Source: Lama guanicoe
Lineage: Eukaryota
Length of the DNA stretch: 62,889 nucleotides
Direction: 5' to 3'
Assembly: GCA_013239625.1 (NCBI GenBank)
Contig: MU053783.1
Location: 1 to 62,889 of the forward strand
This document shows positions 30,861 through 62,889 of the stretch, piece by piece. Position 1 is the stretch's first letter. Every line of letters begins with the position of its first letter. The translations under genes were made by a program, and so were the position numbers. The notes below the pieces were generated by a model. The model made no database searches and had not been told where the DNA came from. It worked only from the letters and a program-made list of their open reading frames with translations.

Positions 30861-33374
30861 GAAACAATAGATGTCAATTGTTCAATAAATCAGTAACAGT
30901 CTTTCTTCATCTCAATCACAAAAAGAATCCTAGCTCATAAGAAAAAAAATGGATACCTGCCGAAGGAGGTTTTGCAAGTGATACATCCATCCTGGGGAAT
31001 CTCTGATAACACAATAGTAAAATCATTACTGAGACCATCATCTGTTATTTCAAGGACTCAAATATTGGGCTCATTATAGATAAAGTTTCAGAGGATTTGG
31101 TAGAAAAATGTCAGGTGTTGGAGTCTGTTGGCTCTTTCCTGTGTCCTTTGGTATGGGGAAGACAGGTTAGCACTACTGACTGCAGACAGAAAAGAGCAGG
31201 AGAACCAATCTGCTCACTTTTCAGGCTACAGTCAATGATCCCTGACCACCTAGAATCACAGAACTTTGTGTCTGTTAAATTGCACATGCCGAGTTCTCTT
31301 CTACATTCTAAATGGGTGTGCTACCCAGAAACGTAGTTACCAAAAGAGCCAGAGGAATTGGCAAAGCCTGATCTCAGCAGACATCTACCAAGCAACCCCT
31401 GCCAGGCAGAGGCAATAATGCCTGGCTGCGCATTGCACTGAGAGAGCTGGGTGCCGCCTAGGGGCAGAGCGCAGGTTAGCTCTGTGCCAGTATCCCAGTC
31501 AAGGCACAAACAGAGGCTGAGGCACAGAGAAACACTGTTAGGACAAGGCTGCAAGGACACAGGCATGTTCCTGGGGCTGTTACTATTTCAAAGAGTTAGT
31601 GAGGTAAATTGAATCGGGATGAAAGATTATGGTTAAGTAATAATTGGTAATTTGTCATCTGCCAATTGAAACTCATACGTTGAAGTCATCTCACATTTAA
31701 GTTGGGTTTGAGATGGTTGGATTGCCAGCAAACCTCAGACTTGCCAAGACACGTGTATGATTGCTCTCCTGGCCCAAGGCAATCCCCAGACTTTTCTCTG
31801 CTCATTGAAGGAGTGAGGCTGATGAATCCAAAAGCAAGGCTCTGGGACTGCACTACTGATATGGCAGCTAAGAGCCACTTGCGGGTATTAAATTTATTAT
31901 TTTTTAGTTTTAAATATTAAAGAATCCATTCCTCAGTTACACTAGTCACACTTCAAGTACACGTGACTAGCGGCTAACACATCNNNNNNNNNNNNNNNNN
32001 NNNNNNNNNNNNNNNNNNNNNNNNNNNNNNNNNNNNNNNNNNNNNNNNNNNNNNNNNNNNNNNNNNNNNNNNNNNNNNNNNNNNNNNNNNNNNNNNNNNN
32101 NNNNNNNNNNNNNNNNNNNNNNNNNNNNNNNNNNNNNNNNNNNNNNNNNNNNNNNNNNNNNNNNNNNNNNNNNNNNNNNNNNNNNNNNNNNNNNNNNNNN
32201 NNNNNNNNNNNNNNNNNNNNNNNNNNNNNNNNNNNNNNNNNNNNNNNNNNNNNNNNNNNNNNNNNNNNNNNNNNNNNNNNNNNNNNNNNNNNNNNNNNNN
32301 NNNNNNNNNNNNNNNNNNNNNNNNNNNNNNNNNNNNNNNNNNNNNNNNNNNNNNNNNNNNNNNNNNNNNNNNNNNNNNNNNNNNNNNNNNNNNNNNNNNN
32401 NNNNNNNNNNNNNNNNNNNNNNNNNNNGATAAGTAGATCTCAGTGAGCAGCAGTTATGAATGAGCCCAGCTGTTAGAGAAAGGAAATTCAAATGCAATCA
32501 ATATGTAGAAAGATAAAGCTCCTGGAGAAAACAGAGAGAAACTGGAACAAAGAAACACAAAAGGAAAGACAAGACGAGACCACTTACAGTGACTCAATCA
32601 GAGCATAAAATATTTTTCTGGAAATATATAGTTATATGTTTATCATTTAAAAGATAGTTGATAATACAAAGGAGAGAATATCCACCAAGACCTGAGTTAG
32701 TGTCCTGCAAGATAAAGCAGAAAAAATATTTCAAAGAAGGTAGCATGAATTCAAAGTAATGGGAATAATAAGGGGAAAGAATCAGATACCTGAATGCATT
32801 TGATCAAAACCTAACTGATCAAAAAAAAAGGATTGCAGAAGAATAAAAAGAATAAAAAGGAACTGATGGGTAACAGAATATTATTAAACAAGTATAAGAA
32901 GGAAACATCTCTAAGTTGAGGAAAGATATGCATCTACAGTTTTAAAGGATACAATAAATTCTGGGCAGATTTGAAGAGGGGAAAAACCCTACACAGCTGG
33001 GTAAAATTCCTGAATTCCAACATAAAGGAAAATTCTAATAGTTTTGAGAGGAAAAGCACAAAGTATTTATGAAAAAAAGTAATTCTGGTACCAAATTTTA
33101 TAAATCAAAAATATATACTTTTATTTATTTATTCTTATTTTTTACAAAACCTTATTCAGTCACCTTTTTCAAAAATGTTCCATACAGGTCAACTTTCTGG
33201 CTTCTAATGTCTAAGGTTTTGTGTGTTTTTTGCTTTTTTTTTTGGCTATTCCACTTGAGATCCAGTTTGGGTGCTTATATAATTTGAGGTACAAATGATT
33301 TTTCTTATTCCTTTTAAGGTTATATCTCCACTATCTCCTAGCTTTCCTTTTACTTAGAATGCAACTTACAGGAG

Positions 33375-36300
33375 TGATGTCACCAAGATGATGGAGTAGG
33401 ACATCCCAGTCTCTGTCCCCTGACAAAGAAAATCACATAGACAGCTATCCACATACAGCAACAGCTCCAGAAGCACTCTGGAGTCCCCTTAATAAGCTTC
33501 TGCAACACAGTGGAGCAAAAGCAAACAAAAAAACAAACAAACAAAATAAAAATGAGAACAAAACTCTTGTGAATAATTACATAAAGACTGTAGGAAGGAT
33601 AGTTCTTTTTGCATCCTGTCATCCCCAGGCAGGCAGTACTGTGTGACAAGATGGAAATTTTTCTCACTAGGAAAAGGAAAACAGGGTGAGCAAACAGCTT
33701 TCTCAGCCTTCTGGGGCACTGCACCAAGGACCTGCCTCAGCTTCCCACCACCCAGAGACCAGCTAAGATGCCTAGTGACTCACAGGGACAAGGAAGAAAG
33801 ACAGGGACTGTGAGTATCAGGCATGTGGTGGAGTGGTCATGGTTCCCAGTGGCCTGCTCAGCAGAAGACCACAGCATCCTTTGCTGCTGAGGATCTTGGT
33901 AGCCTGTGTGGGTGGTGTGGACTCCCACAGCTTACACAGTGGGGACCCTGTTGTGGAACCCAGTGTACTGTTCTGCAGAGGGCCCAAGCAGCCTTTGCCA
34001 CTGAGGAAACCAATGGCCAGCACAGCTGCTCCAGATACCCTGAACATTTCTCCACTGCGGGCCCCACAGGTTTCTGTGTTCACAGACTCCACCTGTTTGA
34101 GTCCATCCCCACCCTGCCAGCCAGAGCTACTCCAGACAGCAGTGCCATGAATGTCCTGGGCCCTGGAGTTCATGTCTGAAGATATTCCTGGCCTCTGTGG
34201 CTACACAAGTGCACAATGCTAGCTCAGGCCTCTGTGGGGAACCCCCACTGCCATGCATGCATGCACCTGCAGCTAGCCCTGCAGTCACAGGTGTGCACAC
34301 CAATAGCCCAGGCCCCTGAAGCTGCTCAAGCACCCAGGGCCAGCCCCGGCTTCTGTCATTGGCTTTCACCATATGGCACACCTGCATGTCAACAGCCCAG
34401 ACCCTCGTCACCAGCCTCCCACTGCTAGGCACATGCTTGTGAGTAGCCCCTGCAGGCACATGAGTGCATGCTGACAGCCAACTCACCGACAGCCGCTCAT
34501 GTACCAGGAGATGGTCCCAGTCACTTTCTAGACCTACACCAGCATGCATGCCTCCAGATAGCACCTGCTGCTGCACAAGTGCACACCAATGGCTTGGGTC
34601 TCCACAGCTGCTCATGCACCTACAGTTAGCCTGACCTCCATAACTGGTCCTGACACTCACTACAACACATGCTCATGCAACTGGTCCTTGCTGCCATGTG
34701 GGAACCCACAGCCAGACTCCACAGTCAAGTGTATGCACACCACCAGTTCCAGCCACCACTGCCACCTGCCGTGTTCCCTGGCCACTGAGACTGGAGGTGA
34801 CACCAAGGGCTTCAAAAGCCCTCACCATGGACCTGCTGCATCTCTCACCACTAAGGACCATGCAGTTACTGATGTCATGGGCCCCAGCTGTCTTAGCCAA
34901 CAAGGCACTATGCCATCTCAGACCTAGAGCCGACATTTGCCCCTATGCATGGCATACCACACGATGAAGTCCAGGACAACAGTACACTCCAGCATTCACC
35001 CACTCACAGGTAAGTATCTTTGCCTATCAAAGTCAGTCCATAAAACCTGGAAGAGGCGACTGCTTCTTCAAATATACAGACAACTGCACAAGGCAATGGA
35101 GGCCACAAAGAATCAGGCAAACATGATAACACCAAAGGAACACAGTAAGCTTCCAGGAACTGACCCCAAAGAAATGGAGATCTATGCATTGCCTGACAAA
35201 TAATTCAAAATAACTGGCTAAAAGAAGCTCAAAGAGCTCCAAGAGAACACAGATAAATAATCTAACAAAATCAGGAAAACCGTACAAGAACAAAAAAGTT
35301 CAACAAAGAAATAGAAAACATAAAAAAGAACCAAAGAAATTTTGGAGCTGAAAATCATGAGTAATTTAAAAAAGGCAATAAAATACTTCAGCAGAAGACT
35401 CAATCAAGCAGAAGAAAGAATCACTGAACTCAATAATAAGTCATTTGTAATTATCCAGTCATAGGAAAAAAAAACGTGAAAAGAAATAAGAAAGACTATG
35501 GGTCTTAAAGGACTTCATCAAATGAAATCATATTTGCATTATGGGAGTCCCAGAAAGAGAAGAGAGAAAGACAGAAAGTTGATTTCAAGCCACACTGGCT
35601 GAAAACTTTCCTAATTCAGGGAAAGATATGAACACCCAGGTACATGAAGTTCAAAAGTCCCCAGTCAGCTTCAACCCAAAGGAGATTTTACTGAGACATA
35701 TTTCGATAACTTTGATTCAAAAATCAAAGACAATGAGAGAATCTTGAAAGCAGCAAGAGAAAAAAAAAAGGCTCATCACATACAAAGGAATCCCTCCCCC
35801 TACCCAAGGATATCTGTAGATTTCTCAGCAGAAACCTTGCAGATCAGGGAAGAGTGGGATGATATATTCAAAGCACTGAAAGAAAAAAAATGTCAACCAA
35901 GAATACCTTCAACAACAAAGCTATCCCTTTAAATTGAAGGAGAGAGAAACACATTTCCAGACAAGCCAAAGCTGAAGGACTTCATCATCACTACACCTGC
36001 CTTATAAGAAATGCTAAAGGGAGTTCTTTAAGCTAAAAAAAAAAAAAAGGTTGCTAACTAGTAACTGAAATCATATGAAAATATAAAACTCATTGCTAAG
36101 GTAAATATATAGTCACATTCAGAAGACCCTAAGATTGTAACAATGGTGTGTAAGTCACTTACAATTGTAGTACATAGATTAAACAATAAAAGAATTTAAA
36201 ATAACTATAGCAAGAGAAATTTGTTAATGGATGCACAATGTAAAAATATATAAATTGTGATATCAAAAACATAAATATTGGGTGGGTAAAGATATAGAGC

Positions 36301-39600: not shown

Positions 39601-40710
39601 ACTAAAACAAGAAGACAATCTACGGAATGGGAGAAAATTTTTGCAAATGAAACCGACAAAGGTTTGATCTCCAGAATATATAAGCAGCTCATACGACTCA
39701 ATAATAAAAAAAATAAACAACCCAATTCAAAAATGGGCAGAAGACCTAAACAAGCAATTCTCCAAGGAAGACATACAAATGATCAAAAAGCACAAGAAAA
39801 AATGCTCAATATCACTAATTATCAGAGAAACGCAAATCAAAACTACAATGAGTTATCATCTCACACGAGTCAGAATGGCTGTCATTCAAAAATCCACAAA
39901 TGACAAATGCTGGAGAGGCTGTGGAGAAAGGGGAACCCTCCTACTCTGCTGGTGGGAATGCAGTTTGGTGCAGCCACTGTGGAAAACAGTGTGGAGATTC
40001 CTCAAAAGACTAGGAATAGACTTAACATATGTCCCAGGAATCCCGCTCCTGGGCACATATCCAGAAATAATCCTACTTCAAAATGACACCTGCACCCCAA
40101 TGTTCATAGCAGCATTATTTACAATAGCCAAGACACGGAAACAGCCCCAAAGTCCATGAACAGATGACTGGATAAAGAAGAGGTGGTATATTTATACAAT
40201 GGAATACTATTCAGCAATAAGAAACAACAACATAATGCCATTTGCAGCAATATGGATGTTCCTGGAGAATGTCATTCTACGTGAAGTAAGCCAGAAAGAG
40301 AAAGAAAAATACCATATGAGATCGTTCATACGTGGAATCTAAAAAANNNNNNNNNNNNNNNNNNNNNNNNNNNNNNNNNNNNNNNNNNNNNNNNNNNNNN
40401 NNNNNNNNNNNNNNNNNNNNNNNNNNNNNNNNNNNGAGAATACAGTGGTTACCAGGGGGGTGGAGGGTGGGAAGGGATAGACTGGGATTTTAAAAGTGTA
40501 GAATAGATAAACAAGATTACACTGTATAGCACAGGGAAATATACACAAAATGTTATGTTAACTCACAGAGAAAAAAAGGTGACAATGAGTGTGTATATGT
40601 CCATGAATGACTGAAAAATTGTGCTGAACACTGGAATTTGACACAACATTGTAAAGTGGCTATAAATCAATAAAAAATGGTAAAAAAATCTATGTTTACA
40701 AAAAAAAGCA
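39601..40710 (+). mobile_element. 5'-truncated camelid-type L1 (contains a gap)
   Basis: ORFs 39544-39903 and 39779-40159 match the L1 ORF2 C-terminus (EWEKIFAN...[19 protein letters not shown]). The 3'UTR resembles the 20245 and 52571 copies. Confidence 0.95.
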
Positions 40711-52570: not shown

Positions 52571-53745
52571 CATTGTCTGACACACATCTCAAAAACGTTC
52601 TCCTAGGACAGTCTACCCAAGCAATAGAAATAAAAGCAAGAATAAACAAATGGGACCTAATTAAACTTACAAGCTTCTGCACAGCAAAGGAACCATAAGT
52701 AAAACAAAAAGACAACCTACAGATTGGGAGAAAATTTTTGCAAATGAAACCAACAAATATATAGGCAGCTCATATGACTTAATAAGAAACAACCAAACAG
52801 CCCAGTCCAAAAATGGGCAGAAGATCTAAACAAGCAATTCTCCAAGGAAGAAATACAAATGATCAATAGGCACATGAAAAAATGCTCAATATCATTAATT
52901 ATCAGAAAAATGCAAATCAAAACTACAATGGCCATCATTCAAAAATACACAAATGACAAATGCTGGAGAGGCTGTGGAGAAAAGGGAAGCCTCCTACACT
53001 GCTGGTGGAAATGCAGTTTGATACAGCCACTGTGGAAAACAGTATGGAGATTCCTCAAAAGACTAGGAATAGACTTACCATATGACCCACTAACCCCGCT
53101 CCTGGGCATGTATCCAGAAGGAACCCTACTTCAAAAAGACACCTGCACCCCAAAGTTCATAGCAGCACTATTTACAATAACCAAGACATTGAAACAGCTA
53201 AATGTTCATCAACAGATGACTGGATAAAAAATAAGTGGTATATTTATACAATGGACTACTATTCAGCTATAAAAACTGACAACATAATGCCATTTGCAGC
53301 AACATGGACGTTGCTGGAGAATGTCATTCTAAGTGAAGTAAGCCAGAAAGAGAAAGAAAAATACAATATGAGATGCTCATATGTGGAATCTAAAAAAAAA
53401 AAAAAGAAGGAAAGGAAGAAAGAACAAATAAATACAAATCAGAAACAGACTCACAGACATAGAATACAAACTTGTGGTTGCCAGGGGGTGGGAAGGGGCA
53501 GATTGTGATTTCAAAATGTAGAATAGATAAACAAGATTATACTGTATAGCACAGGGAAATATATACAAGATCTTATGGTAACTCACAGAAAAAAAATGTG
53601 ACAATGAATACATGTATGTTCATGTATAACTGAAAAGTTGTGCTCTTCACTGGGATTTGACACAACATTGTAAAGTGATTATAACTCAATAAAAAATGTT
53701 TTTAAAAAATAAATAAAGTGGGGGTCATAATTAAAAAAGAAAAAA
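52571..53745 (+). mobile_element. 5'-truncated camelid-type L1
   Basis: L1 ORF2 C-terminal peptides (ORFs 52859-53227 and 53251-53508), 3'UTR and A-rich tail. Imperfect TSD aagaacCatt / aagaacTatt. Inserted at the end of a MER5-like element (~52420-52570). Confidence 0.95.
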
Positions 53746-54653: not shown

Positions 54654-56365
54654 AGTCCCCACTGTCAATGTCCATTCCACAATCTTGTGGAAAAAGGGGT
54701 GATGACTATTCTGGCTACTTCCTTCTGAACAGGAGTAAGGAGGGGGTGATCATGGGATGGAGTTGATCAGCCTTGGAAAGAAAATATTCCTTAGAATCTT
54801 TAGTCACTAGTGAAATCTTCTTTGCTTCTTCATCTACAACTACTTGAACCTGATAAAACCACTTAGTACTTTGTTTAACTTGGGGTTTTGGTTCCAGTTC
54901 CCAATACAAATCTATTAATTTTACCTTTCTGACTGTGCCATAATTACAATAGATTCCTCTGTTATTTATTTGGAAAAGGTTAAATGAATAGTTTAACCCT
55001 TTTCCAGCTATAAAAAAATTATTTAAGGAGGACATTACCACTCTGGTGGGTTTTTTTTGCTGGGGTGAGATATGGGTCTGCCCATCCTGAAAAAGACTCC
55101 ACAAACACTAGCAGGTACATGAAACTTCCTGCAGCTTGAGGCATTTGAGCCCTCTGTGGGGCAGGTTCCTCTGTGTTGAGTCCCCATTGTGGGAGGTCTG
55201 ACAGCAATCTTTAGGTTATTTTTAGCACAAATCATGCAATTCTGGGTCATTTGCTGAAAGATTTTTTTATAGGTTAGGCCCCTCTTCCATAATTTTGATA
55301 CCATTACAAGGTGGCATCTCTCCCATAATGAGTACTATTATGAATGCGCCATAGTATAGTTTCCAGAAATGTCTCAGGGATCAAGACAATTCCTTGTGCA
55401 CTACATGGCCAGCCAGGCAAGGCGTGATCAAGAGTGAAACCCCACTCTTTGGCCTTCTCTGTCCTTTTTCTGAATATGCTGCCTTACATTTTGACAGGTC
55501 ATTCTGTGGGAGAAGGGATTCTAACATAGCTTGATAGTTGCCTTAGCAAATCACCCACATGTTGGAGTAAAATCCATCGTACAATATTAAGTTTCTTAGG
55601 TTCCCTAGCCAACATTTCCCTAAAAAGGATAGGGAACTTCTTAAATTCTTGAGGTAGGGCTGTCCAGCAATCCTGTTGGACTACTTGTGTTTTGGGGTCC
55701 TGCCACTCAGAAGCAAATAAGAATGCAGGAAAAAAAGATCTTTCTAGTCCCAAACTGAGAACCAGCCGTGTTCTACTGGAATAGTTGTGAGCAGGGTGGA
55801 AGGATGAGGCACCACAGGGTGTAAGTCTTGGACCACTTCATCAACAGCCCTCAAGTCTTGGACAAAGTGATACTCTGCAGAGTTTGGTTTTCTGACTGGG
55901 AGAATAGGGATGTTGTAGGGGGACCTGCAGGTTGAATCAGTCTTGTTTTTGAAAACTTTTCTAGAATTGGCTGAATTCCCTTTTGGACCTCTTGCCTCTG
56001 ACGATATTGATTTATATTGGGTGTCCAACCCTCCCTTTTTAGTGGGATCTGCACTGGCCATGTGGTTTTGGCTTTCCCAGGGGTTCTGTCAGCCTACACT
56101 TCTGGACTTACCCTGTCATACACCCCAAGGGGAAAGAGCTCTGTCTCCTCCTCTGGGGCTTTCATGAGTGCCATCTGTGGACTTAAAGCACGTTCTGGTG
56201 GAACTGTGATGTTAAGCTGTTCTGGTGAAAATGTTACTTAAGCATTTTATTTACAAAGGAGCTCTCGGCCCAGAGAGGGACTGGATATTCTGGCACATAT
56301 TAGAAACTATGATTCAGGGTGAGGTCTCCTTGTTGGCATTCTGGAGGTTGTTAAGAATGAACAAT
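54654..56365 (-). mobile_element. Internally deleted class I ERV: protease C-terminus, RT and integrase remnants
   Basis: PR: HSF*YVPEYPVPL.GRELLCK (~56230-56340). RT: CRSPYNIPILPVRKPNSAEYHFVQDLRAV...HPVVPHPSTLL and LFASEWQDP...WTALPQEFK...LLQHVGDLL (degenerate YVDD). IN: CMICAKNN and YLLVFVESFSGW. Many stops and frameshifts; no RNase H, env, gag or 5' LTR seen. Confidence 0.9.
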
Positions 56366-57350
56366 TTTGTAATTCTCAATAGAATAGTATATGTACTTAC
56401 AACTTTATACTGTGAACTTAATTGTTTAATATCTACCTTCATGCATGGAAGAGTTTTTATGTTATTATAAAGTATACTTTAATAAGTGTGATAAAGGAGA
56501 ATTACATGATGTTAAGGAATTATGTTAATGTAATGGGCTTTATGAATTCACAAATTAGCTAAGCACTGAGAGTGATTGGAATTAGATAGGCAAGTCTCTT
56601 GAGGGGAGTAGGGGATTGATGTGTAAAAGATTATTTCTAAGAGTGAGAATAGCATGTGTATGCCCCTGTAGCATGAGGGAACATAGTTAAGTACGAGGAT
56701 TGTCAGAAGTATATCTATGATAATGATCCTGAAGGTGAACAAGGAGTGATTTGAGGCTACTAACAAGGGTAAGGCCAAATATGTAACAGTCAGCATATTA
56801 TAGCAGGCTGTCCAGCGAGCCGGCCCTCCGCAGGCGCCACGGGGTGGGCAAGCTCCCCGCGGGGGTCTCGGGCTCCAAGCCCACTGCCCCGCCTCCCTGC
56901 CACATGCTATGCATCGTCCGGGGACGCCACTCGCCGAGAGAGACCCTCAAACACAAGTCACCCGCCCTCCCCACCCTCCTCGCCTTGCCTTGCAACCCCG
57001 CCCCAGAACCGCCCTCCCGATCCCCGTGCAGTAACCCCCGCCCCTCGCCGGGAAGAACTGGCAGTGACTCCAGCAGCCTTGGCGGCTCTTTGAGCCCAAG
57101 GAGCAAGCGAGGCAGCCATTGGCGGAGGCCGCTGCCTCCGGCTGTGAATCCCGTGGCCCCGCCCCGCCCCACCGGCTGAGCCTGGCAGGACAGGGCCGCG
57201 GGGACAGTCGGGACGCCTCCAAGATGGCGGGGCGCTTGGGGTCCGCACCTGCTGGCGGCCCCGAGCCCCGTTCACTGCCACCACTGCTGATCGGAGCCGC
57301 TGGTCGGCCTGGCGAGTCTGGGGGCTGTCCCCGCGTGGCAGGAGGCCGCC

Positions 57351-57803
57351 ATGGCGACCCTGGAAAAGCTGACGAAGGCCATCGAGTCCCTCAAGTACTT
57401 CCAGCAGCCTCAACCGCCACAGCAGCCCGCCCAGCCCCCTCAGCCGGCACCGCAGCTGCCGCCGCCTCGGCCCCCTCAGCCGGTACCGCCTCTGCTGCCT
57501 GCTCAGACTCCTCAGTCGGGACCGCAGCCGCCGCCGCTTCAGCCCTTTCAGCCAGCACCACAGCCGCCGCCTCCTCGGCCCCTTCAGCCGACACCGCAGC
57601 CTCAACCGCCACCGCTGGCCGCCCAGCCCCTCAGCCGGCACAGCCGCCTCAGCCGGTACCGCAGCCGCTGCCGCCTCAGCCCCTTCAGCCGGCACCGCAG
57701 CCTCTACCGCCACTGCCGCCCGCCCAGCCCCCTCAGCCGGCACCGCCGCCTCAACCGCCACCGCCACCCTCCCAGCTGTGTGTCACTAGCCGCTGCACAG
57801 ACG
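57351..57803 (+). pseudogene. HTT: Huntingtin exon 1-like paralogous copy (divergent N17, Pro/Gln-rich minisatellite, degenerate exon end)
   Basis: gccgccATGGCGACCCTGGAAAAGCTG...; MATLEKLTKAIESLKYFQQPQPP matches HTT N17 at 14/17 residues. The 5'UTR matches HTT. The exon end GCTGTG..TAGCCGCTGCACAGACG|gt corresponds to GCTGTG..GAGCCGCTGCACCGACC|gt. One 1-nt deletion near 57630, a second near 57770, and TAG at 57787-57789 in the ancestral frame. Confidence 0.9.
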
Positions 57804-57950
57804 GTGGTCCCTGCGGGCCCCTCCCCAACCCTGCGCGGTCTCCATCCCTCCCTCGGCCTCCCACGAAGGCCCCGGAGGCGGTCCGGGCCCCACGCCTCTG
57901 CTTTCCCGGCTACGAAACTTGGGAAGGAACGGGGCTGTGTTGTGATCTGA
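57351..57950 (+). CDS. Possible single-exon 199-aa HTT-N17/Pro-rich protein (as assembled, frameshifted after ~57630)
   Basis: Open frame from a perfect Kozak ATG. No expression evidence, and GC-rich repeats stay open by chance. Confidence 0.3.
   Translation: MATLEKLTKAIESLKYFQQPQPPQQPAQPPQPAPQLPPPRPPQPVPPLLPAQTPQSGPQPPPLQPFQPAPQPPPPRPLQPTPQPQPPPLAAQPLSRHSRLSRYRSRCRLSPFSRHRSLYRHCRPPSPLSRHRRLNRHRHPPSCVSLAAAQTVVPAGPSPTLRGLHPSLGLPRRPRRRSGPHASAFPATKLGKERGCVVI
57402..57775 (+). repeat. Degenerate 36/48-bp minisatellite encoding (QPPQPAPQPPPP)n
   Basis: The anchor CCC CYT CAG CCG RCA CCG recurs at 57435, 57471, 57507, 57543, 57579, 57627, 57644, 57680 and 57728. Confidence 0.9.
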
Positions 57951-59178
57951 GGCCGCGCGTCCCGTTCGGCTTCCTCTGGGCCACTCCCCACCCCTCTCCT
58001 CTTCCGGGCCAGGTGTAACATTTTGTCTTCCCTTTTCAACTGACTGTTTAAAACAGTGTTTCAGATAACTGTCAAAACACTGTATATGCAAAATACTAGG
58101 TTAACTTAAGGGAAGGAGTAGGAAAGAAGGGGGAAAGGAGCGAAGTTCACCGGTCACTTCTGTGGGGGTGGGTTAGGTGGTCACAGTGGTGAACGCGTAA
58201 CTGCTACATGGCCCCGTCCGCTTACCATCATAGTCGTTACTGTTACTAACCCCGGACAGCCCTGGTATTAAGGAGGCATGACCACAGAACATGTGCTCTT
58301 TGAGCTTAATTTTACACAAACAGTAAGATTTCCACGGAATCAAGACAGGCAGTAAACTCCAGCTGCAGGGGACAGCTTGTGCAGGGCTGGGAAACAGCAT
58401 GGCATGATCAGAACTTTAGTTTGACTGGCTTGAAATTTAGAGGGAAAGGGAAACTTCACACTGATGAATCAGAGAGGAGATAGCTGTTTTTTATTAAACT
58501 AAAATGGTTGAATGAGCCTTGTTGGTTAATGATTTGCCTTAGCAATGTGAATTTGGATTCTGCAAGTATTTTATAAGTTCTGTAAGAAGCTTGTTTTAAA
58601 ATTTCAGAACTCTTAAGGTATTAGAAGTTNNNNNNNNNNNNNNNNNNNNNNNNNNNNNNNNNNNNNNNNNNNNNNNNNNNNNNNNNNNNNNNNNNNNNNN
58701 NNNNNNNNNNNNNNNNNNNNNNNNNNNNNNNNNNNNNNNNNNNNNNNNNNNNNNNNNNNNNNNNNNNNNNNNNNNNNNNNNNNNNNNNNNNNNNNNNNNN
58801 NNNNNNNNNNNNNNNNNNNNNNNNNNNNNNNNNNNNNNNNNNNNNNNNNTTTTATGTTGAGAAAAAAATTTTGGATTTTAAAAAAAACCCAAAAAAGGGC
58901 TATGAGGGGGAGAAAAAACAAAAAACTGATTTTTTTTTTTAATTCACCGTAAGGTGCATTCTTAAATACATAGGAGAGAACTGTCATGATTTGCGCAACT
59001 CGCTTGCAAATAGTTCAACAGTATTAACAATGATTGAATTTAGGTGGTGGGCATATGGGAATTTATCATCCTATTAAACAGTTTTCTGTACTTCTGAGAC
59101 TTATGATAAAACATTGGAAGGAGTCTGTTAGACATAATGCTCTATGTGAAGTAATTTGTTCCCTTTGTGAAATTCTAG

Positions 59179-59264
59179 GAAGGTTAAAATGCATGTTCAT
59201 AACATCAAGAAAATCACAAGCATTTATGATGTAATCAGAACTACCTGAGGATCTGTGAAACTTG
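59179..59264 (+). pseudogene. NAALAD2: NAALAD2-like exon (~exon 9)
   Basis: ag|G AAG GTT AAA ATG CAT...CTT G|gtgagt. KVKMHVHNIKKITSIYDVIRTT*GSVKL versus [28 protein letters not shown]. TGA at 59246-59248. Confidence 0.9.
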
Positions 59265-59545
59265 GTGAGTTGGTGAATTTTTTAAAATGTCTTAAAACAT
59301 TTTGTTTTTACAAAGATTACAGGAGTAAGAGAAGGTAAATCTTAATCAACTCTTAATATTTTTTTCCTGGTTGATGTGATATAATTAAATGTGGGGAAAA
59401 AAAGGTAAATTCTAAAAGGAGACACTACCTTGATGGTTTTCTATGGAGGAAACTCAAGCAGGAGGAAGTTTAATTTAAAAACATAAATTACTGCTCTTTA
59501 TAATACATTCTAAGTTGTCATTCTTTTGAATGCCTTCCTTTCCAG

Positions 59546-59665
59546 ACAGATGTGTTATTCTGGGAGATCATCAGGACTTCTGGGTATTTGGAGGTATTGA
59601 CCTAACCAGTGGAACTGCTGATTTATAAGAAGTTGTCCAGAATTTTGGAAAACTGATTAGTAGAG
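59546..59665 (+). pseudogene. NAALAD2: NAALAD2-like exon (~exon 10)
   Basis: ttccag|...|gtaaat. [40 protein letters not shown] versus [41 protein letters not shown]. TAA at 59626-59628. Confidence 0.92.
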
Positions 59666-59770
59666 GTAAATAATGTTTCCATGGCAAGTGATGACAGAAA
59701 GTGACTTCAGTGAATTTTCCTTTGTTTTTAGGCAGATGTACCTAACCATGTATGTTAACAATGATTTCAA

Positions 59771-59852
59771 GCTGGAGACTGAGAAGAACAGAACTGCCAT
59801 CCAGCTGGGATGCAGAAAAATTTGGACTTCTGGGTTCCACAAATGGGCTGAG
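59771..59852 (+). pseudogene. NAALAD2: NAALAD2-like exon (~exon 11)
   Basis: GWRLRRTELPSSWDAEKFGLLGST-(1-nt deletion)-WAE|gtaact versus [28 protein letters not shown]. The acceptor is damaged or shifted by one base. Confidence 0.9.
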
Positions 59853-62011
59853 GTAACTAAGACAGTAAACATATCTTCTTGGTCAACATGTATCTCAGGG
59901 TAATCACAGAACAGATCCATTACCTGATACTGTTTTAAATTGGATAAAAACAAGAAAATTTAAGAAATAGAGTTTGTTTTTGCTTTTACATCAGTTTGGC
60001 AAAACAGAACAACCTCTTAATTACTAAGCACAAACCAATTTTTTCATTATTTTTAAAATATTTTAGTTTCTATTTATATTGGTTTTGTGATAAGTAAGTA
60101 AAATCTGTAAGCTCAGAAAATAGTCAAACCTAGGAAGCTACTTCTGACAAGTGAATTAGCCTATTGAAAATCTGATTTAGATCCTTGGCATTAATTTTCA
60201 AGTTTTTACAGTTTCCTTGGATTTCTTCTATCCAGGAAAACAACATGCTCTTTTTAGATGACTATACTCTGATTATAGTCTCTCCTTTATGGATTCAACA
60301 CTAAATTGTAACCATAGGTATATTTTACCATTTACAAAAGTGCCTGGTTGGGAAGTGTAATACAATGATTTTGTAAATTGAATTACTCTAAAATTTCAAG
60401 GATTTATTTTTAATTCAATTATGATTAATTTTCATTTGTCACTGGCTCTTAATGCTTTATTTTAAAGTGTCTCTCATAGACCCCCTTCTTTCATCTTCTT
60501 CCCTTATGCTCTCTGTCCAGTAACTCTAAGTTCTTACATGTTCAAGGTAGGCTTGTGTATTTTTTTAAAGGCAGGCGCACCAAAAAGCACTTTCCTGTGA
60601 CTATCCTCTGTTTTGTTCATTTATGAGTCCAAATTTTATAGAATTGATTTAAAGAATGTCATATCTTTCTTATTATTGTGAATGGTTTTTAAAATGCTTT
60701 CCTTCTGACTCATTTCTGCATACTTTAAAATAATAATATGAATCAAATAAGTATGGGAATAAAATCACATTTACTTGTATCACATTTGATTCCATTTATA
60801 TGGCAAAGTCTTATTATTATGTTGTTGTTATGAACATGCATTTCATAATACACTTATTTAGATGAATCAGAGCTTATTCATTAAGGTCATTTACTTTTAG
60901 AAATATGTAATTTCTTGTGAACACATGTATATAGAAATACATGTGTCTTTTTATAATTTAAGCAGCTTAAAATACAGATAAAATAAATCCAAGATACAAG
61001 ATAATATGCCTTGCATTAATTTAAATTCATGTGAGTTAAAAGACAATTTGAATATTGTTTCCCATTTTCTACTAGCTTCTTGATCATATTCAGCAGCACA
61101 TTTACCTTTACATATAATTAAGGAATCTTTTTTATTTCTACTGTAGCTCTGTCATAATGGATACTCTGCCGCAGAATCAGCTGTCATCTATCCCATGTGG
61201 TCAAGTGCAGAGGTGAGAATTCTCATTTGTGGGATGACCACTCACAGCTTTAAATGTTTTTACTGTAACTGCTTTTATAAGGTAGCAAGCTAGAGAGAGA
61301 GAGAGAAACAGAGAGAAGAAAAGAGTTCTCTCTGCATATTCCCATGTTGTGTGATGGCATTAGTCTTCTTCTGCTGTATTTTTCTAGAATGTGTGTGCGT
61401 GTGTGCATGTATGTGTGAGAAATGTCTTGTCTTTGTCCTAATAGCCACTCTTCTCTCCCTCGAGTTTTTTTCTCTATCCTCCCCTCCTATATTTTTCTTT
61501 TTCATCAATATCTTCTCTTTCAAAAAATTCTTGATAAATCAAATTTCCAACTTCCTCACTTTTAATATGGTAAAGTTACTTGGATCCCCAACATCAAGGG
61601 ATCTCATACTTTAATGTCTGTAAGGATTTCCAGAGACACCTTTTAAAAATACAGATTTCCAGGCCTTACTTTGAGCAGTCCTCTTCCAGTAGATCCAGGG
61701 TGAGGCTGAGCATCTCCGAGCCTTCCCCCTTCATATTATGGTGCAGGGGATCAGGGGCAGTTTTCCTCTGGGTCTCCCTGCTGTTGCTATGAACAGTGGC
61801 TACAGCATCACTAATATTTTTCTTTCTTGTTTTAATTGCATTAATATTATCAACCAGTTAATAGCATTTTCTTAAAATTATGGTCAAAAGCATAGGTGTT
61901 TGATTTATAATGGTATCTGCAAACCACTCTTTTACTGAATTAATTTGTTTTGCTTGTATTTCCAAAATTGTAAATGCTGTGAGTTAAATGACTGCTTTGC
62001 TTCAACTACAG

Positions 62012-62075
62012 GAGAATGTGAAAACACTCCAGGAGAGAGAGGTTGCATATATCAATGCAGACTCATACACAGAAG
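62012..62075 (+). pseudogene. NAALAD2: NAALAD2-like exon (~exon 12)
   Basis: ctacag|GAG AAT GTG AAA...GAA G|gtaaat. ENVKTLQEREVAYINADSYTEG versus [22 protein letters not shown]. Confidence 0.92.
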
Positions 62076-62889
62076 GTAAATTTTATTTCAGATTGTCATT
62101 AAATAGTATACCAGTATTTAAGTCTATCAACTCCTACCCATAAACTAGGATTATCCTCTTTCTATGAGATGCCTCAATAATACCTCCATTTCTCCATTTT
62201 ACCAGAGAGAACATTATTATGATTCAAATGAATCAATATGATTCATAACTAAGCTATTGATCCTAATTTCTTTAGTCTATTTACCATTTGCCTATCTTGG
62301 ATTACTACTTAAAACTTTAGTACTTTTGACATTCTTCCTGTGGAGCTATTTTTAAAATTTGGGCTAAAATATTTCATGCAGAAATAGTTCCTGTATGTAT
62401 CGGAACAACTCTGAAATAAGCACCCACTACAGACTTCCTTTTGACCCTGACATGTGGCATGTGCATCTGTAGGCTTTCATCGTATTATGGTTATTTCTAG
62501 GTAAGTGTCACAGGACACATGTTAGTTACTGACATGCTCTAGTCTAAAGTCTTGATATTGAATTGAATGAATGAATAAAAACATGAACATTATGGCCTTA
62601 CCACTTCCTTTGCCAAAGACCCCTAGGTACTGCTGCCGTAATGAGCAATGACCCTTACTATTACTGCAGGAGCTGCAGCCTTAGCAGCAGAGTCTGCCTC
62701 TGCAGTCTCCTATCCTGAGTGTGCGCTGCAGCCTCTTTGGCTCCTGAAGAGTTATTTCCACCTTGCGTTTTAGTTTTAGCCAGACTGTCTGCCTGTCTAT
62801 TTATCTCCCTACCTATCTATTCTAAAATTTTATTTATTTATTTTTACTGAAGTACATTTGATTTGTAATATTAGTTTCAGGTGTACAGC

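Follow-up and report, generated by a model that had tools for sequence, protein, structure and literature searches.

HTT is regarded as strictly single-copy, and its exon 1 is the disease-relevant part. The window analysed here, a 62,889-nt stretch of Lama guanicoe DNA, carries an HTT-like promoter and exon 1 next to NAALAD2-like exons, raising the question of what this locus is, how it arose and whether it is active. A sequence-only reading had proposed one second HTT exon 1 locus, probably camelid. We consider it likely that positions 56803-58015 belong to one member of a multi-copy chimeric HTT/NAALAD2 duplicon of camelids, a proposal that takes in its origin, its spread and its role as promoter and first exon. 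The anatomy of the family, its parents, junctions, copy number and relative ages were established as set out below.

The HTT-derived block and its copies

Positions 56803-58015 stand out by composition as a sharp block of 1213 nt with a GC content of 0.723 and a CpG observed/expected ratio (o/e) of 0.73, whereas its flanks have values of 0.347 and 0.16, respectively. Length, GC content and o/e all exceed the limits by which CpG islands are recognized (>500 nt, >55% and >0.65). Both borders are set by homology: the canonical HTT locus, on contig C9121, aligns to 56803-58001, and the canonical NAALAD2 intron aligns, independently of the HTT side, from 58010-58016 rightward. The block is a DNA-level copy of the HTT 5' end: it runs from the promoter through the 5'UTR, with its upstream ORF (uORF), the N17-like start, the Pro-rich region and the exon-1 donor to about 210 nt into intron 1. 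A second GC-rich stretch, at 34001-35000, was considered as another captured island and set aside, as by eye it reads as an L1 5' end.

All parts of the block lie on the forward (+) strand. The HTT-derived core promoter and CpG island (56803-57223) aligns to DNA upstream of canonical HTT on C9121 and holds a CCAAT box at 57116 and six CCGCCC boxes. In alignment to C9121, the promoters of all copies lack stretches of about 35 and 10 nt that HTT has, and the CCAAT-box block, AGCCATTGGCGGAGGCCGCTGCCTC, is nearly invariant among them. The 5'UTR (57224-57350), delimited by aligning the copies to C9121, begins with the uORF start ATG at 57224. At 57345, a Kozak-type GCCGCCATGG leads into the N17-like start MATLEKLTKAIESLKYF, which with only two Gln codons occupies 57351-57407 (direct reading of ORFs). 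As seen from reading frames and repeat analysis, an expanded Pro-rich region followed by the exon-1 end spans 57408-57803, including an array with a period of 36 nt at 57427-57702, and the first ~210 nt of HTT intron 1 (57804-58015) open with GT at 57804-57805. The promoter motifs, 5'UTR, Kozak ATG, N17, Pro-rich region and GT named in the sequence-only reading are thus all present. Its further statements, that no KKELSATKK, poly(A) or target-site duplication (TSD) follows and that the block was copied as DNA and is no retrocopy, also stand: promoter and intron sequence are included, no poly(A) or TSD flanks 56803-58015, and KKELSATKK, from HTT exon 2, is absent from the window and the paralogous loci and found only in contig C9121.

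A search of the guanaco genome with the block gave 24 matches, which are spread over 18 contigs and have identities of 69-100%. An N17-type start was present in 10 of 15 paralogous contigs, a set that includes the window, so at least 10 N17-bearing copies exist beside canonical HTT, and the proposed single second locus gives way to a family. Many copies sit at contig ends in this fragmented assembly of 55231 contigs. Canonical HTT was recognized on C9121 by 12 of 15 Htt_N-HEAT (PF12372) exon matches above cut-off and by the sole KKELSATKK exon; PF12372 exons were found on C9121 and a small contig, C48386, and in neither the window nor the copies. Since HTT exon 2 and the HEAT-repeat exons lie on a contig other than its own, the window copy is ectopic, as had been claimed. 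The copies have 2-4 Gln codons versus 16 in the assembled canonical exon. We also observed that a tract of 291 nt in canonical exon 1 on C9121 is identical to copy C7381; it has the look of a local mis-join, with gene conversion as an alternative.

The other parent, canonical NAALAD2, lies on C5646, where most matched exons are 97-100% identical to dromedary NAALAD2 and three are 79-91% identical, in line with the camelid assignment made before. The Peptidase_M28 and TFR_dimer exons of NAALAD2 were also located on C5646. Searches of the genome with the Peptidase_M28 and TFR_dimer profiles found these canonical exons and missed the degenerate NAALAD2 copies, which were detected only by tblastn with the full-length protein.

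NAALAD2-derived exons, chimeric models and decay

The NAALAD2-like exons, which had been taken for mere surroundings, turned out to be fused with the HTT block as one duplicated unit. An internal NAALAD2 gene fragment occupies 58016-62889, starting in the intron after the exon for amino acids (aa) 298-330 and running off the window end, with an assembly gap at 58630-58849. The fragment has 79-83% identity to canonical NAALAD2 (C5646, 10153395 down to 10146068) and 90-96% identity to the paralogous copies. Its exons, identified by tblastn with dromedary NAALAD2 (P0088), lie downstream of the HTT block on the same (+) strand, as do all exons described below. The first two, for aa 330-357 (59177-59260) and aa 358-399 (59542-59667), are pseudo-exons with in-frame stops that camelid gene models skip.

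RefSeq models of dromedary, wild Bactrian camel and alpaca join an HTT-like exon 1 to NAALAD2-derived exons and map onto the window exon by exon, with canonical AG/GT at exons 2-5 except for the lost original acceptor of exon 2. Model exon 2 (59732-59852) is the NAALAD2 exon for aa 399-422, extended 5'; its upstream acceptor (TTTTTAG|GCAG) is intact and its donor reads GTAACT, and its original acceptor was lost by a change of CAG to CAA near 59769-59771. Exon 3 (60468-60546) is an exonised intron segment with alternative AG acceptors (starts at 60468 and 60480) and a GTAGGC donor. Another such segment, LCHNGYSAAESAVIYPMWSSAE, forms exon 4 (61147-61212), which matches the alpaca model P0129 identically over that exon, and exon 5 (62012-62075) is the NAALAD2 exon for aa 426-448; both have a canonical AG acceptor and GT donor. 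Several isoforms with shared exon boundaries are modelled in the three species, and chimeric protein models were found only from Camelus and Vicugna. Isoforms X2, X3 and X5 of dromedary LOC116151677 open with MATLEKLLKALESLKF followed by a 24-letter protein stretch, and the C. ferus and V. pacos models start in the uORF frame (MAGRLGS/MAARLGS). Their names are uncharacterised or wrong ('EspK-like', 'FAM71B-like', 'NAALAD2-like'). The models are automated predictions whose frames are mutually inconsistent, which fits non-coding loci as well as real proteins.

Because these models splice the HTT-like exon 1 to NAALAD2 exons, the block is probably the promoter and first exon of chimeric transcripts. 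Words sampled from 56803-62889 are present at 21-30% in four RNA-seq runs from three studies, shares that intronic RNA, carried-over DNA or reads from paralogues could explain. We infer promoter activity and splicing in Lama guanicoe: the HTT-derived CpG island would act as promoter and first exon, and the exon-1 donor would be joined to NAALAD2-derived and newly exonised exons, yielding chimeric RNAs. Titles and abstract openings in the literature yielded no description of an HTT/NAALAD2 fusion family, as the sequence-only reading had supposed; the family is nevertheless not wholly undescribed, since its chimeric products are already in the automated RefSeq annotation of three camelids.

The window copy itself has no intact HTT exon 1 reading frame, because a frameshift near 57620-57640, inside the Pro-rich region, displaces the N17 frame. 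The PLHRR words near the exon end belong to a third frame, not that of N17, and stand immediately behind a stop (AVCH*PLHRR); the exon end reported earlier is thus there in its letters but not as part of an intact frame. In alignment against C9121, a 1-nt insertion common to the copies covering that site removes the uORF stop, so that the uORF frame runs on into exon 1 (ORF 57224-58018, opening at the upstream ATG). The exon-1 donor reads GTGGTC in the window copy and GTGAGT in C9121, C7381 and C7697. With the retained upstream acceptor of exon 2, both start frames stop 3-8 codons past the exon 1/2 joint; if splicing used the shifted acceptor next to the lost one, the N17 frame would reach a stop after 23-45 codons and the uORF frame after 2. 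N17 differs from that of canonical HTT by three nonsynonymous and no synonymous changes, and a summed pN/pS of 0.82, drawn from 57 nt and few, non-independent comparisons, gives no clear sign of purifying selection. All long copies carry stops or frameshifts, and an open frame is not conserved across copies. The window copy is hence a decaying member, with a weakened donor, one acceptor lost and no frame of more than about 45 codons beyond the joint. As every frame stops soon after that joint, it is most likely a transcribed pseudogene. The family as a whole would consist mainly of transcribed pseudogenes or non-coding RNA genes, because reading frames are not the same from copy to copy or from species to species and contain stops.

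Such decay invites the thought that the copies are entirely inert: segmental duplications would have carried the HTT block along as a dead passenger, without promoter activity, and the RefSeq models would be annotation noise. Stops and frameshifts in every copy examined in the guanaco genome would then be expected, as would the weak donor and lost acceptor of the window copy, the pN/pS of about 0.8 and the inconsistent frames and names of the models. The sequence of the block, however, argues otherwise. The CpG o/e is 0.73 in the block compared with 0.16 in the flanks, at a K2P distance of about 0.15 from the parent, and the CpG-island character is retained even though divergence of the HTT block is about three times as fast as that of its flanks. 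Roughly half of the CpGs of the parent survive: in six copies spanning the whole aligned promoter, 39-50 of 76-77 comparable CpGs were kept and 15-21 had turned into TG/CA. The near-invariance of the CCAAT-box block, the exon boundaries common to isoforms in three species and the words found in RNA runs likewise speak against inert copies, which we regard as unlikely.

Junctions, flanks and relative ages

The junction between HTT intron 1 and the NAALAD2 intron is identical and in the same orientation in 5/5 long copies aligned, with at most 1-3 nt of microhomology, and three short contigs also cross it. Together with the indels relative to HTT that all copies have in common, this junction indicates that the HTT/NAALAD2 fusion arose once. 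Canonical NAALAD2 on C5646 matches only to the right of 58010-58016 and has a normal NAALAD2 intron and exon to the left; we therefore rejected an insertion of the block into NAALAD2 in favour of a breakpoint junction. The copy on C7697 is without the NAALAD2 part, its HTT block ending 40 nt short of the junction. The length of HTT promoter upstream of the uORF start varies from 420 to 660 nt among copies, and two older copies extend 243 nt further into the promoter than 56803, indicating that the 56803 border is secondary and later than the original fusion.

To the left of the block, 56386-56802 (+) is the left-flank duplicon of subfamily A, 95-98% identical in C4139, C7381, C7697 and C1620, with a diverged parent-like single locus at C3323:892945-893366 (87%). 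The left flank of subfamily B has a diverged parent-like single locus on C2563 (92%), and a distal piece one on C973 (86-87%). The copies share low-copy DNA that keeps non-coding parental sequence, and over 4 to 20 kb or more their flanks show 90-96% identity. The fusion lies in a mosaic segmental duplication drawn from at least four donor loci and split into two subfamilies. Two features of a segmental-duplication chimera were found: low-copy duplicates of more than 1 kb that retain non-coding DNA, and a shared junction of unrelated loci. For a third, a spliced RNA with exons of both parents, the RefSeq models and the RNA-seq words are indirect signs. Over 4 kb of NAALAD2-derived intron DNA, K2P to the parent was 0.144-0.158; between subfamilies it was 0.077-0.081, and inside each subfamily 0.035-0.039, with support of 100/100 for each of the two subfamily clades. 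These distances predict that the family arose before camels and llamas separated. Further left in the window, 55900-56385 is an unrelated ERV-like repeat with about 17 dispersed matches (69-97%).

Based on these results, we suggest that in an ancestor non-homologous end joining linked an HTT 5' fragment of at least 1.45 kb to an intron of a duplicated internal NAALAD2 piece. The HTT fragment would have contained the CpG-island promoter, the 5'UTR with its uORF, exon 1 and some 210 nt of intron 1. The NAALAD2 piece would have brought the exons for aa 330-473, head to tail and on the same strand as the HTT part. The fusion, with pieces of at least two further loci, would then have been copied by segmental duplication to at least 10 places in two subfamilies, and a later rearrangement would have trimmed 243 nt of promoter to give the 56803 border.

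Capture and spread by a mobile element, be it Helitron-type, L1 3' transduction or SVA-type 5' exon capture, might also produce many copies with common borders, and the ERV-like repeat does abut the unit at 56385/56386 in the window. That repeat is, however, private to the window copy; TSD and poly(A) are absent, the copies share 12-20 kb or more of low-copy DNA, and their flanks are low-copy pieces without ORFs that trace to single parent-like loci (C3323, C2563, C5646 and C973) and not to a repeat family, all of which makes element capture very improbable. The same joints bear on the single second locus, placed near NAALAD2-like exons by chance. Although the block is indeed ectopic, DNA-level and camelid, we hold such a locus to be extremely unlikely, given the at least 10 N17-bearing copies and a NAALAD2 fragment joined at one identical point in the 5/5 long copies aligned.

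It is just as hard to sustain that the copy is an assembly error, arising from a chimeric contig or from wrong scaffolding of the true HTT exon 1, despite the fragmented assembly, the many copies at contig ends and the tract in C9121 exon 1 that matches C7381. The 56803 junction is shared by four other contigs and the 58015/58016 junction by seven, each carrying private substitutions, and these contigs differ among themselves by 5-20%. Moreover, DNA runs under five organism labels contain about 55% of the sampled words, the assemblies of three other camelid species give the same chimeric models, and canonical HTT exists elsewhere. The window thus does not hold a sole, mis-scaffolded HTT exon 1, which bears out the earlier reading on this point. 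A retrocopy of an HTT1a-type transcript, which like the block would end within intron 1, is scarcely conceivable with 420-660 nt of promoter carried upstream of the uORF start, poly(A) and TSD absent, and a 3' end that meets the NAALAD2 intron by a blunt or microhomology joint.

Relation to known systems and significance

The copies resemble the canonical HTT 5' end in their homologous promoter with CCAAT and GC boxes, uORF start, Kozak ATG, N17, Pro-rich region, exon-1 donor and start of intron 1. They differ in lacking exon 2 and the remaining gene, in the loss of the uORF stop, in expanded and frameshifted Pro-rich repeats, in having 2-4 Gln instead of 16, and in lying elsewhere in the genome in at least 10 copies. 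HTT1a is the exon 1-intron 1 read-through transcript of HTT; the copied segment likewise consists of exon 1 and the start of intron 1, but HTT1a is an RNA isoform that the normal locus makes, whereas the copies are genomic DNA with a promoter and no poly(A).

CHRFAM7A and USP6 are primate chimeric genes born from mosaic segmental duplications. As in these genes, pieces of unrelated genes were juxtaposed as DNA with introns kept and copied within larger low-copy repeats, the first exon coming from one parent and internal exons from the other. The camelid family differs in its parents, HTT and NAALAD2, its higher copy number and its non-primate lineage, as well as in the donated part, a whole CpG-island promoter with exon 1, and in its doubtful coding function. 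FOLH1B, or PSMA-like, is a truncated human duplicate of the NAALAD2 paralogue FOLH1. Both are partial duplicates of the glutamate carboxypeptidase II family without 5' exons that have a foreign start for expression, but in the camelid copies only the exons for aa 330-473 remain, with stops inside, and these copies gained the identifiable promoter of another gene, in an independent event in another lineage.

The family amounts to a natural experiment, a mammalian lineage in which the HTT promoter and exon 1 occur in at least 10 additional copies, showing how the promoter, uORF and N17/polyproline module behave outside their own gene and how fast they decay. It also provides an example of exon shuffling outside primates, in which a housekeeping CpG-island promoter and first exon were grafted onto the internal exons of another gene by mosaic segmental duplication and then amplified. 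In practical terms, the paralogues disturb the assembly of camelid HTT, as the tract in the canonical exon 1 illustrates, as well as annotation, through misnamed chimeric loci, and HTT exon 1 typing in camelids by PCR or reads must allow for them.

A bolder idea, which we consider quite improbable, is that this is an expressed camelid gene family driven by the HTT promoter, of which at least one better-preserved member, such as dromedary LOC116151677, makes a small protein of N17, polyproline and NAALAD2 remnant with almost no polyglutamine. Such proteins, or the RNAs, might compete with huntingtin for N17/polyproline partners or for HTT-promoter factors, and they could also influence how far llamas and alpacas tolerate N17 epitopes. 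Llamas and alpacas are used to raise nanobodies against the huntingtin N17 region, and the raising of antibodies against N17 in camelids must likewise reckon with the copies.

An ectopic HTT-derived island

The HTT-derived block at window 56803–58015, which comprises promoter, 5'UTR with an upstream open reading frame (uORF), exon 1 and ~210 nt of intron 1, spans 1213 nt with sharp borders on direct reading and has a GC content of 0.723 and a CpG observed/expected ratio of 0.73; the corresponding values for the surrounding DNA are 0.347 and 0.16. It contains a CCAAT box (57116), six CCGCCC boxes, an upstream ATG (57224), GCCGCCATGG at 57345, a start of the huntingtin N-terminal (N17) type, MATLEKLTKAIESLKYF, followed by QQ, a Pro-rich array with a 36-nt period (57427–57702), PLHRR words close to the exon end and a GT at 57804–57805. 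The sequence-only reading had listed these features correctly, but the reading frame running through them is broken: the N17 frame shifts within the Pro-rich region, and PLHRR lies in the third frame, immediately after a stop.

The block is real and ectopic, as had been proposed, with canonical HTT residing elsewhere, on the minus strand of contig C9121. There, the exon 1 ATG (2236550) opens MATLEKLMKAFESLKSF followed by 16 Q, the KKELSATKK exon has its sole occurrence (2221731), and 12 Htt_N-HEAT exon matches above cut-off fall within 2158988–2186646. Canonical HTT aligns with window 56803–58001 and not beyond. Membership tests excluded the canonical HTT locus as the identity of the block, and likewise a processed retrocopy; neither a poly(A) nor a flanking direct repeat was found around the block. 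A very small contig (C48386:271–592) duplicates the first Htt_N-HEAT exon matches of C9121 and is probably an unplaced duplicate or haplotype fragment of canonical HTT.

A family of HTT-start/NAALAD2 fusions

With the block as query, a search of the assembly that contains the window (2.05 Gb, 55231 contigs) yielded 24 matches on 18 contigs at 69–100% identity, from which we inspected 15 paralogous contigs (window included) and the canonical locus. An N17-type start is present in 10 of these 15, the other five being fragments that end short of it. The ATG is retained in all ten, with only 2–4 Gln codons, and the Pro-rich repeats are expanded or frameshifted in most. The earlier proposal of a lone second HTT exon 1 locus is not upheld; the block belongs to an old HTT-start/NAALAD2 fusion family that has been amplified.

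Right of 58016, the window matches contig C5646 with 79–83% identity. C5646 is canonical NAALAD2: most of the exons matched to the dromedary NAALAD2 protein are 97–100% identical (three are 79–91%), and Peptidase_M28 and TFR_dimer exons were detected. The breakpoint lies ~230 nt inside the intron after the exon for aa 298–330. In an alignment of canonical HTT, canonical NAALAD2 and five long copies, HTT intron 1 switches to the NAALAD2 intron at the identical point (window 58015/58016) in all five copies, with microhomology of at most 1–3 nt, and the short contigs C6226, C5904 and C40988 also cross this point. Another long copy (C7697:86000–86340, locus L002) is a separately rearranged member, as its HTT block breaks off 40 nt short of the usual junction and unrelated DNA follows.

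The left border at 56803 and the flank 56386–56802 are common to C4139, C7381, C7697 and C1620, and the copies sharing them with the window define subfamily A. The older copies of subfamily B (C4396, C7365) carry 243 nt of extra HTT promoter and a left flank of their own. Compared with HTT, all copies have deletions of ~35 and ~10 nt in common, and a 1-nt insertion that deletes the uORF stop is present in all 11 copies covering the uORF end; canonical uORF reads MAGRLGSAPARGPDPHSLPRC and then stops, and in these 11 copies its frame runs on into exon 1 (window 57224–57300), a frame used by some RefSeq models. The shared junction, borders, deletions and insertion speak for a single founding event with rearrangements thereafter.

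The duplicated unit is a mosaic. In subfamily A, the DNA common to the copies extends at least 7.5 kb leftward and at least 14 kb rightward. The NAALAD2-derived piece, whose counterpart on C5646 runs from 10153395 down to about 10144065, contains the exons for aa 330–473, all with stops in this genome. Past it lies a further shared piece with a parent-like locus on C973 (86–87%), and the left flanks have parent-like loci on C3323 (subfamily A, 87%) and C2563 (subfamily B, 92%). An ERV-like repeat left of 56386, absent from the other copies and with ~17 dispersed matches, stops exactly at the duplicon start (56385/56386). By eye, retroviral pol-like, reverse-transcriptase-like open frames are recognizable on the minus strand at 54715–56385. 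A mobile element carrying the block was rejected in membership tests, as the flanks and mosaic pieces are unlike such an element. Elsewhere in the window (33600–35400 and 52778–53508), a moderately GC-rich stretch (0.56) leads into an apparent L1 ORF1 start, and an L1 ORF2 C-terminal fragment follows further on, both again recognized by eye. Assembly gaps (N runs) occupy 31984–32427, 40347–40435 and 58630–58849, the last in the NAALAD2-derived intron directly right of the block.

Over 4 kb of intron DNA derived from NAALAD2, the copies lie at K2P distances of 0.144–0.158 from the NAALAD2 parent, with 0.077–0.081 between subfamilies and 0.035–0.039 within them; both subfamily clades receive 100/100 support. 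Chimeric models are known from Camelus and Vicugna alike. From these distances and models, we infer that the founding event most likely predates the camel/llama split. Within subfamily A (window, C4139, C7381), the block has diverged by 10–12% versus 3.5–3.9% for the flank (56803–58015 versus 58016–62889), i.e. about threefold faster; CpG transitions make up only about a fifth of the block differences, and GC and CpG contents are still high.

Canonical exon 1 itself is anomalous in this assembly. At C9121:2236140–2236440 (locus L006), N17 and 16 Q are followed by a second 5'UTR end, ATG and N17-like unit. A 291-nt tract behind the polyQ, starting 18 nt upstream of the second ATG, is 100% identical to copy C7381. 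Given the tandem layout, a local mis-join or filled gap is the more probable origin of the tract, and gene conversion a possible one. A mis-join would mean that this assembly may lack the genuine Pro-rich end of camelid HTT exon 1.

Probable chimeric transcripts and coding value

The window's N17 ORF, used as a protein query, returned a single match, the dromedary "uncharacterized protein LOC116151677 isoform X3", in which an HTT-type exon 1 (N17, Pro-rich, ...RSRCTD) is followed by a NAALAD2 exon, two new exons, two more NAALAD2 exons and a new terminal exon; isoforms X2 and X5 resemble it. For C. ferus ("EspK-like") and V. pacos ("FAM71B-like", "uncharacterized"), the modelled proteins combine the same set of exons but begin at the uORF ATG, in a different frame. 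Exon by exon, all of these models correspond to the window, with canonical AG/GT borders at 59732–59852, 60468 or 60480 to 60546, 61147–61212 (exon 4) and 62012–62075; over exon 4, the alpaca chimeric model P0129 and the window are identical. Automated annotation already models these loci, under wrong names.

In the six copies spanning the whole aligned promoter, 39–50 of 76–77 comparable parental CpGs are kept and only 15–21 are now TG/CA; the flanks are CpG-depleted, whereas the block retains its CpG-island state. Moreover, the stretch with the CCAAT box is almost invariant among copies, and 21–30% of words sampled from 56803–62889 are present in four RNA-seq runs from three studies. The HTT-derived island probably supplies chimeric RNAs with both their promoter and their first exon.

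The frames of the chimeric models conflict between species and between copies, and the long copies in this genome contain stops or frameshifts. The window copy shows signs of decay in its splice sites and frames: GTGGTC replaces the donor GTGAGT, and exon 2 has lost its original acceptor. If the retained upstream acceptor is used, the conceptual transcript stops 3 codons past the exon 1/2 joint in the uORF frame (197 aa) and 8 codons past it in the N17 frame (159 aa); if the shifted acceptor adjoining the lost one is used, it stops after 2 codons in the uORF frame (196 aa) and after 23–45 codons in the N17 frame (181–203 aa). Compared with the parent, N17 has a summed pN/pS of 0.82, from changes that are few and not independent.

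A full-text literature search, at the level of its listings, returned no published description of this camelid family. In primates, chimeric genes have been born from mosaic segmental duplications, and humans carry a truncated FOLH1 duplicate; by analogy, the HTT-start/NAALAD2 family would work like the former and parallel the latter. The family appears to behave like transcribed pseudogenes. The window copy is most likely a pseudogene in decay that may still be transcribed, and a coding member of the family may exist in some species.
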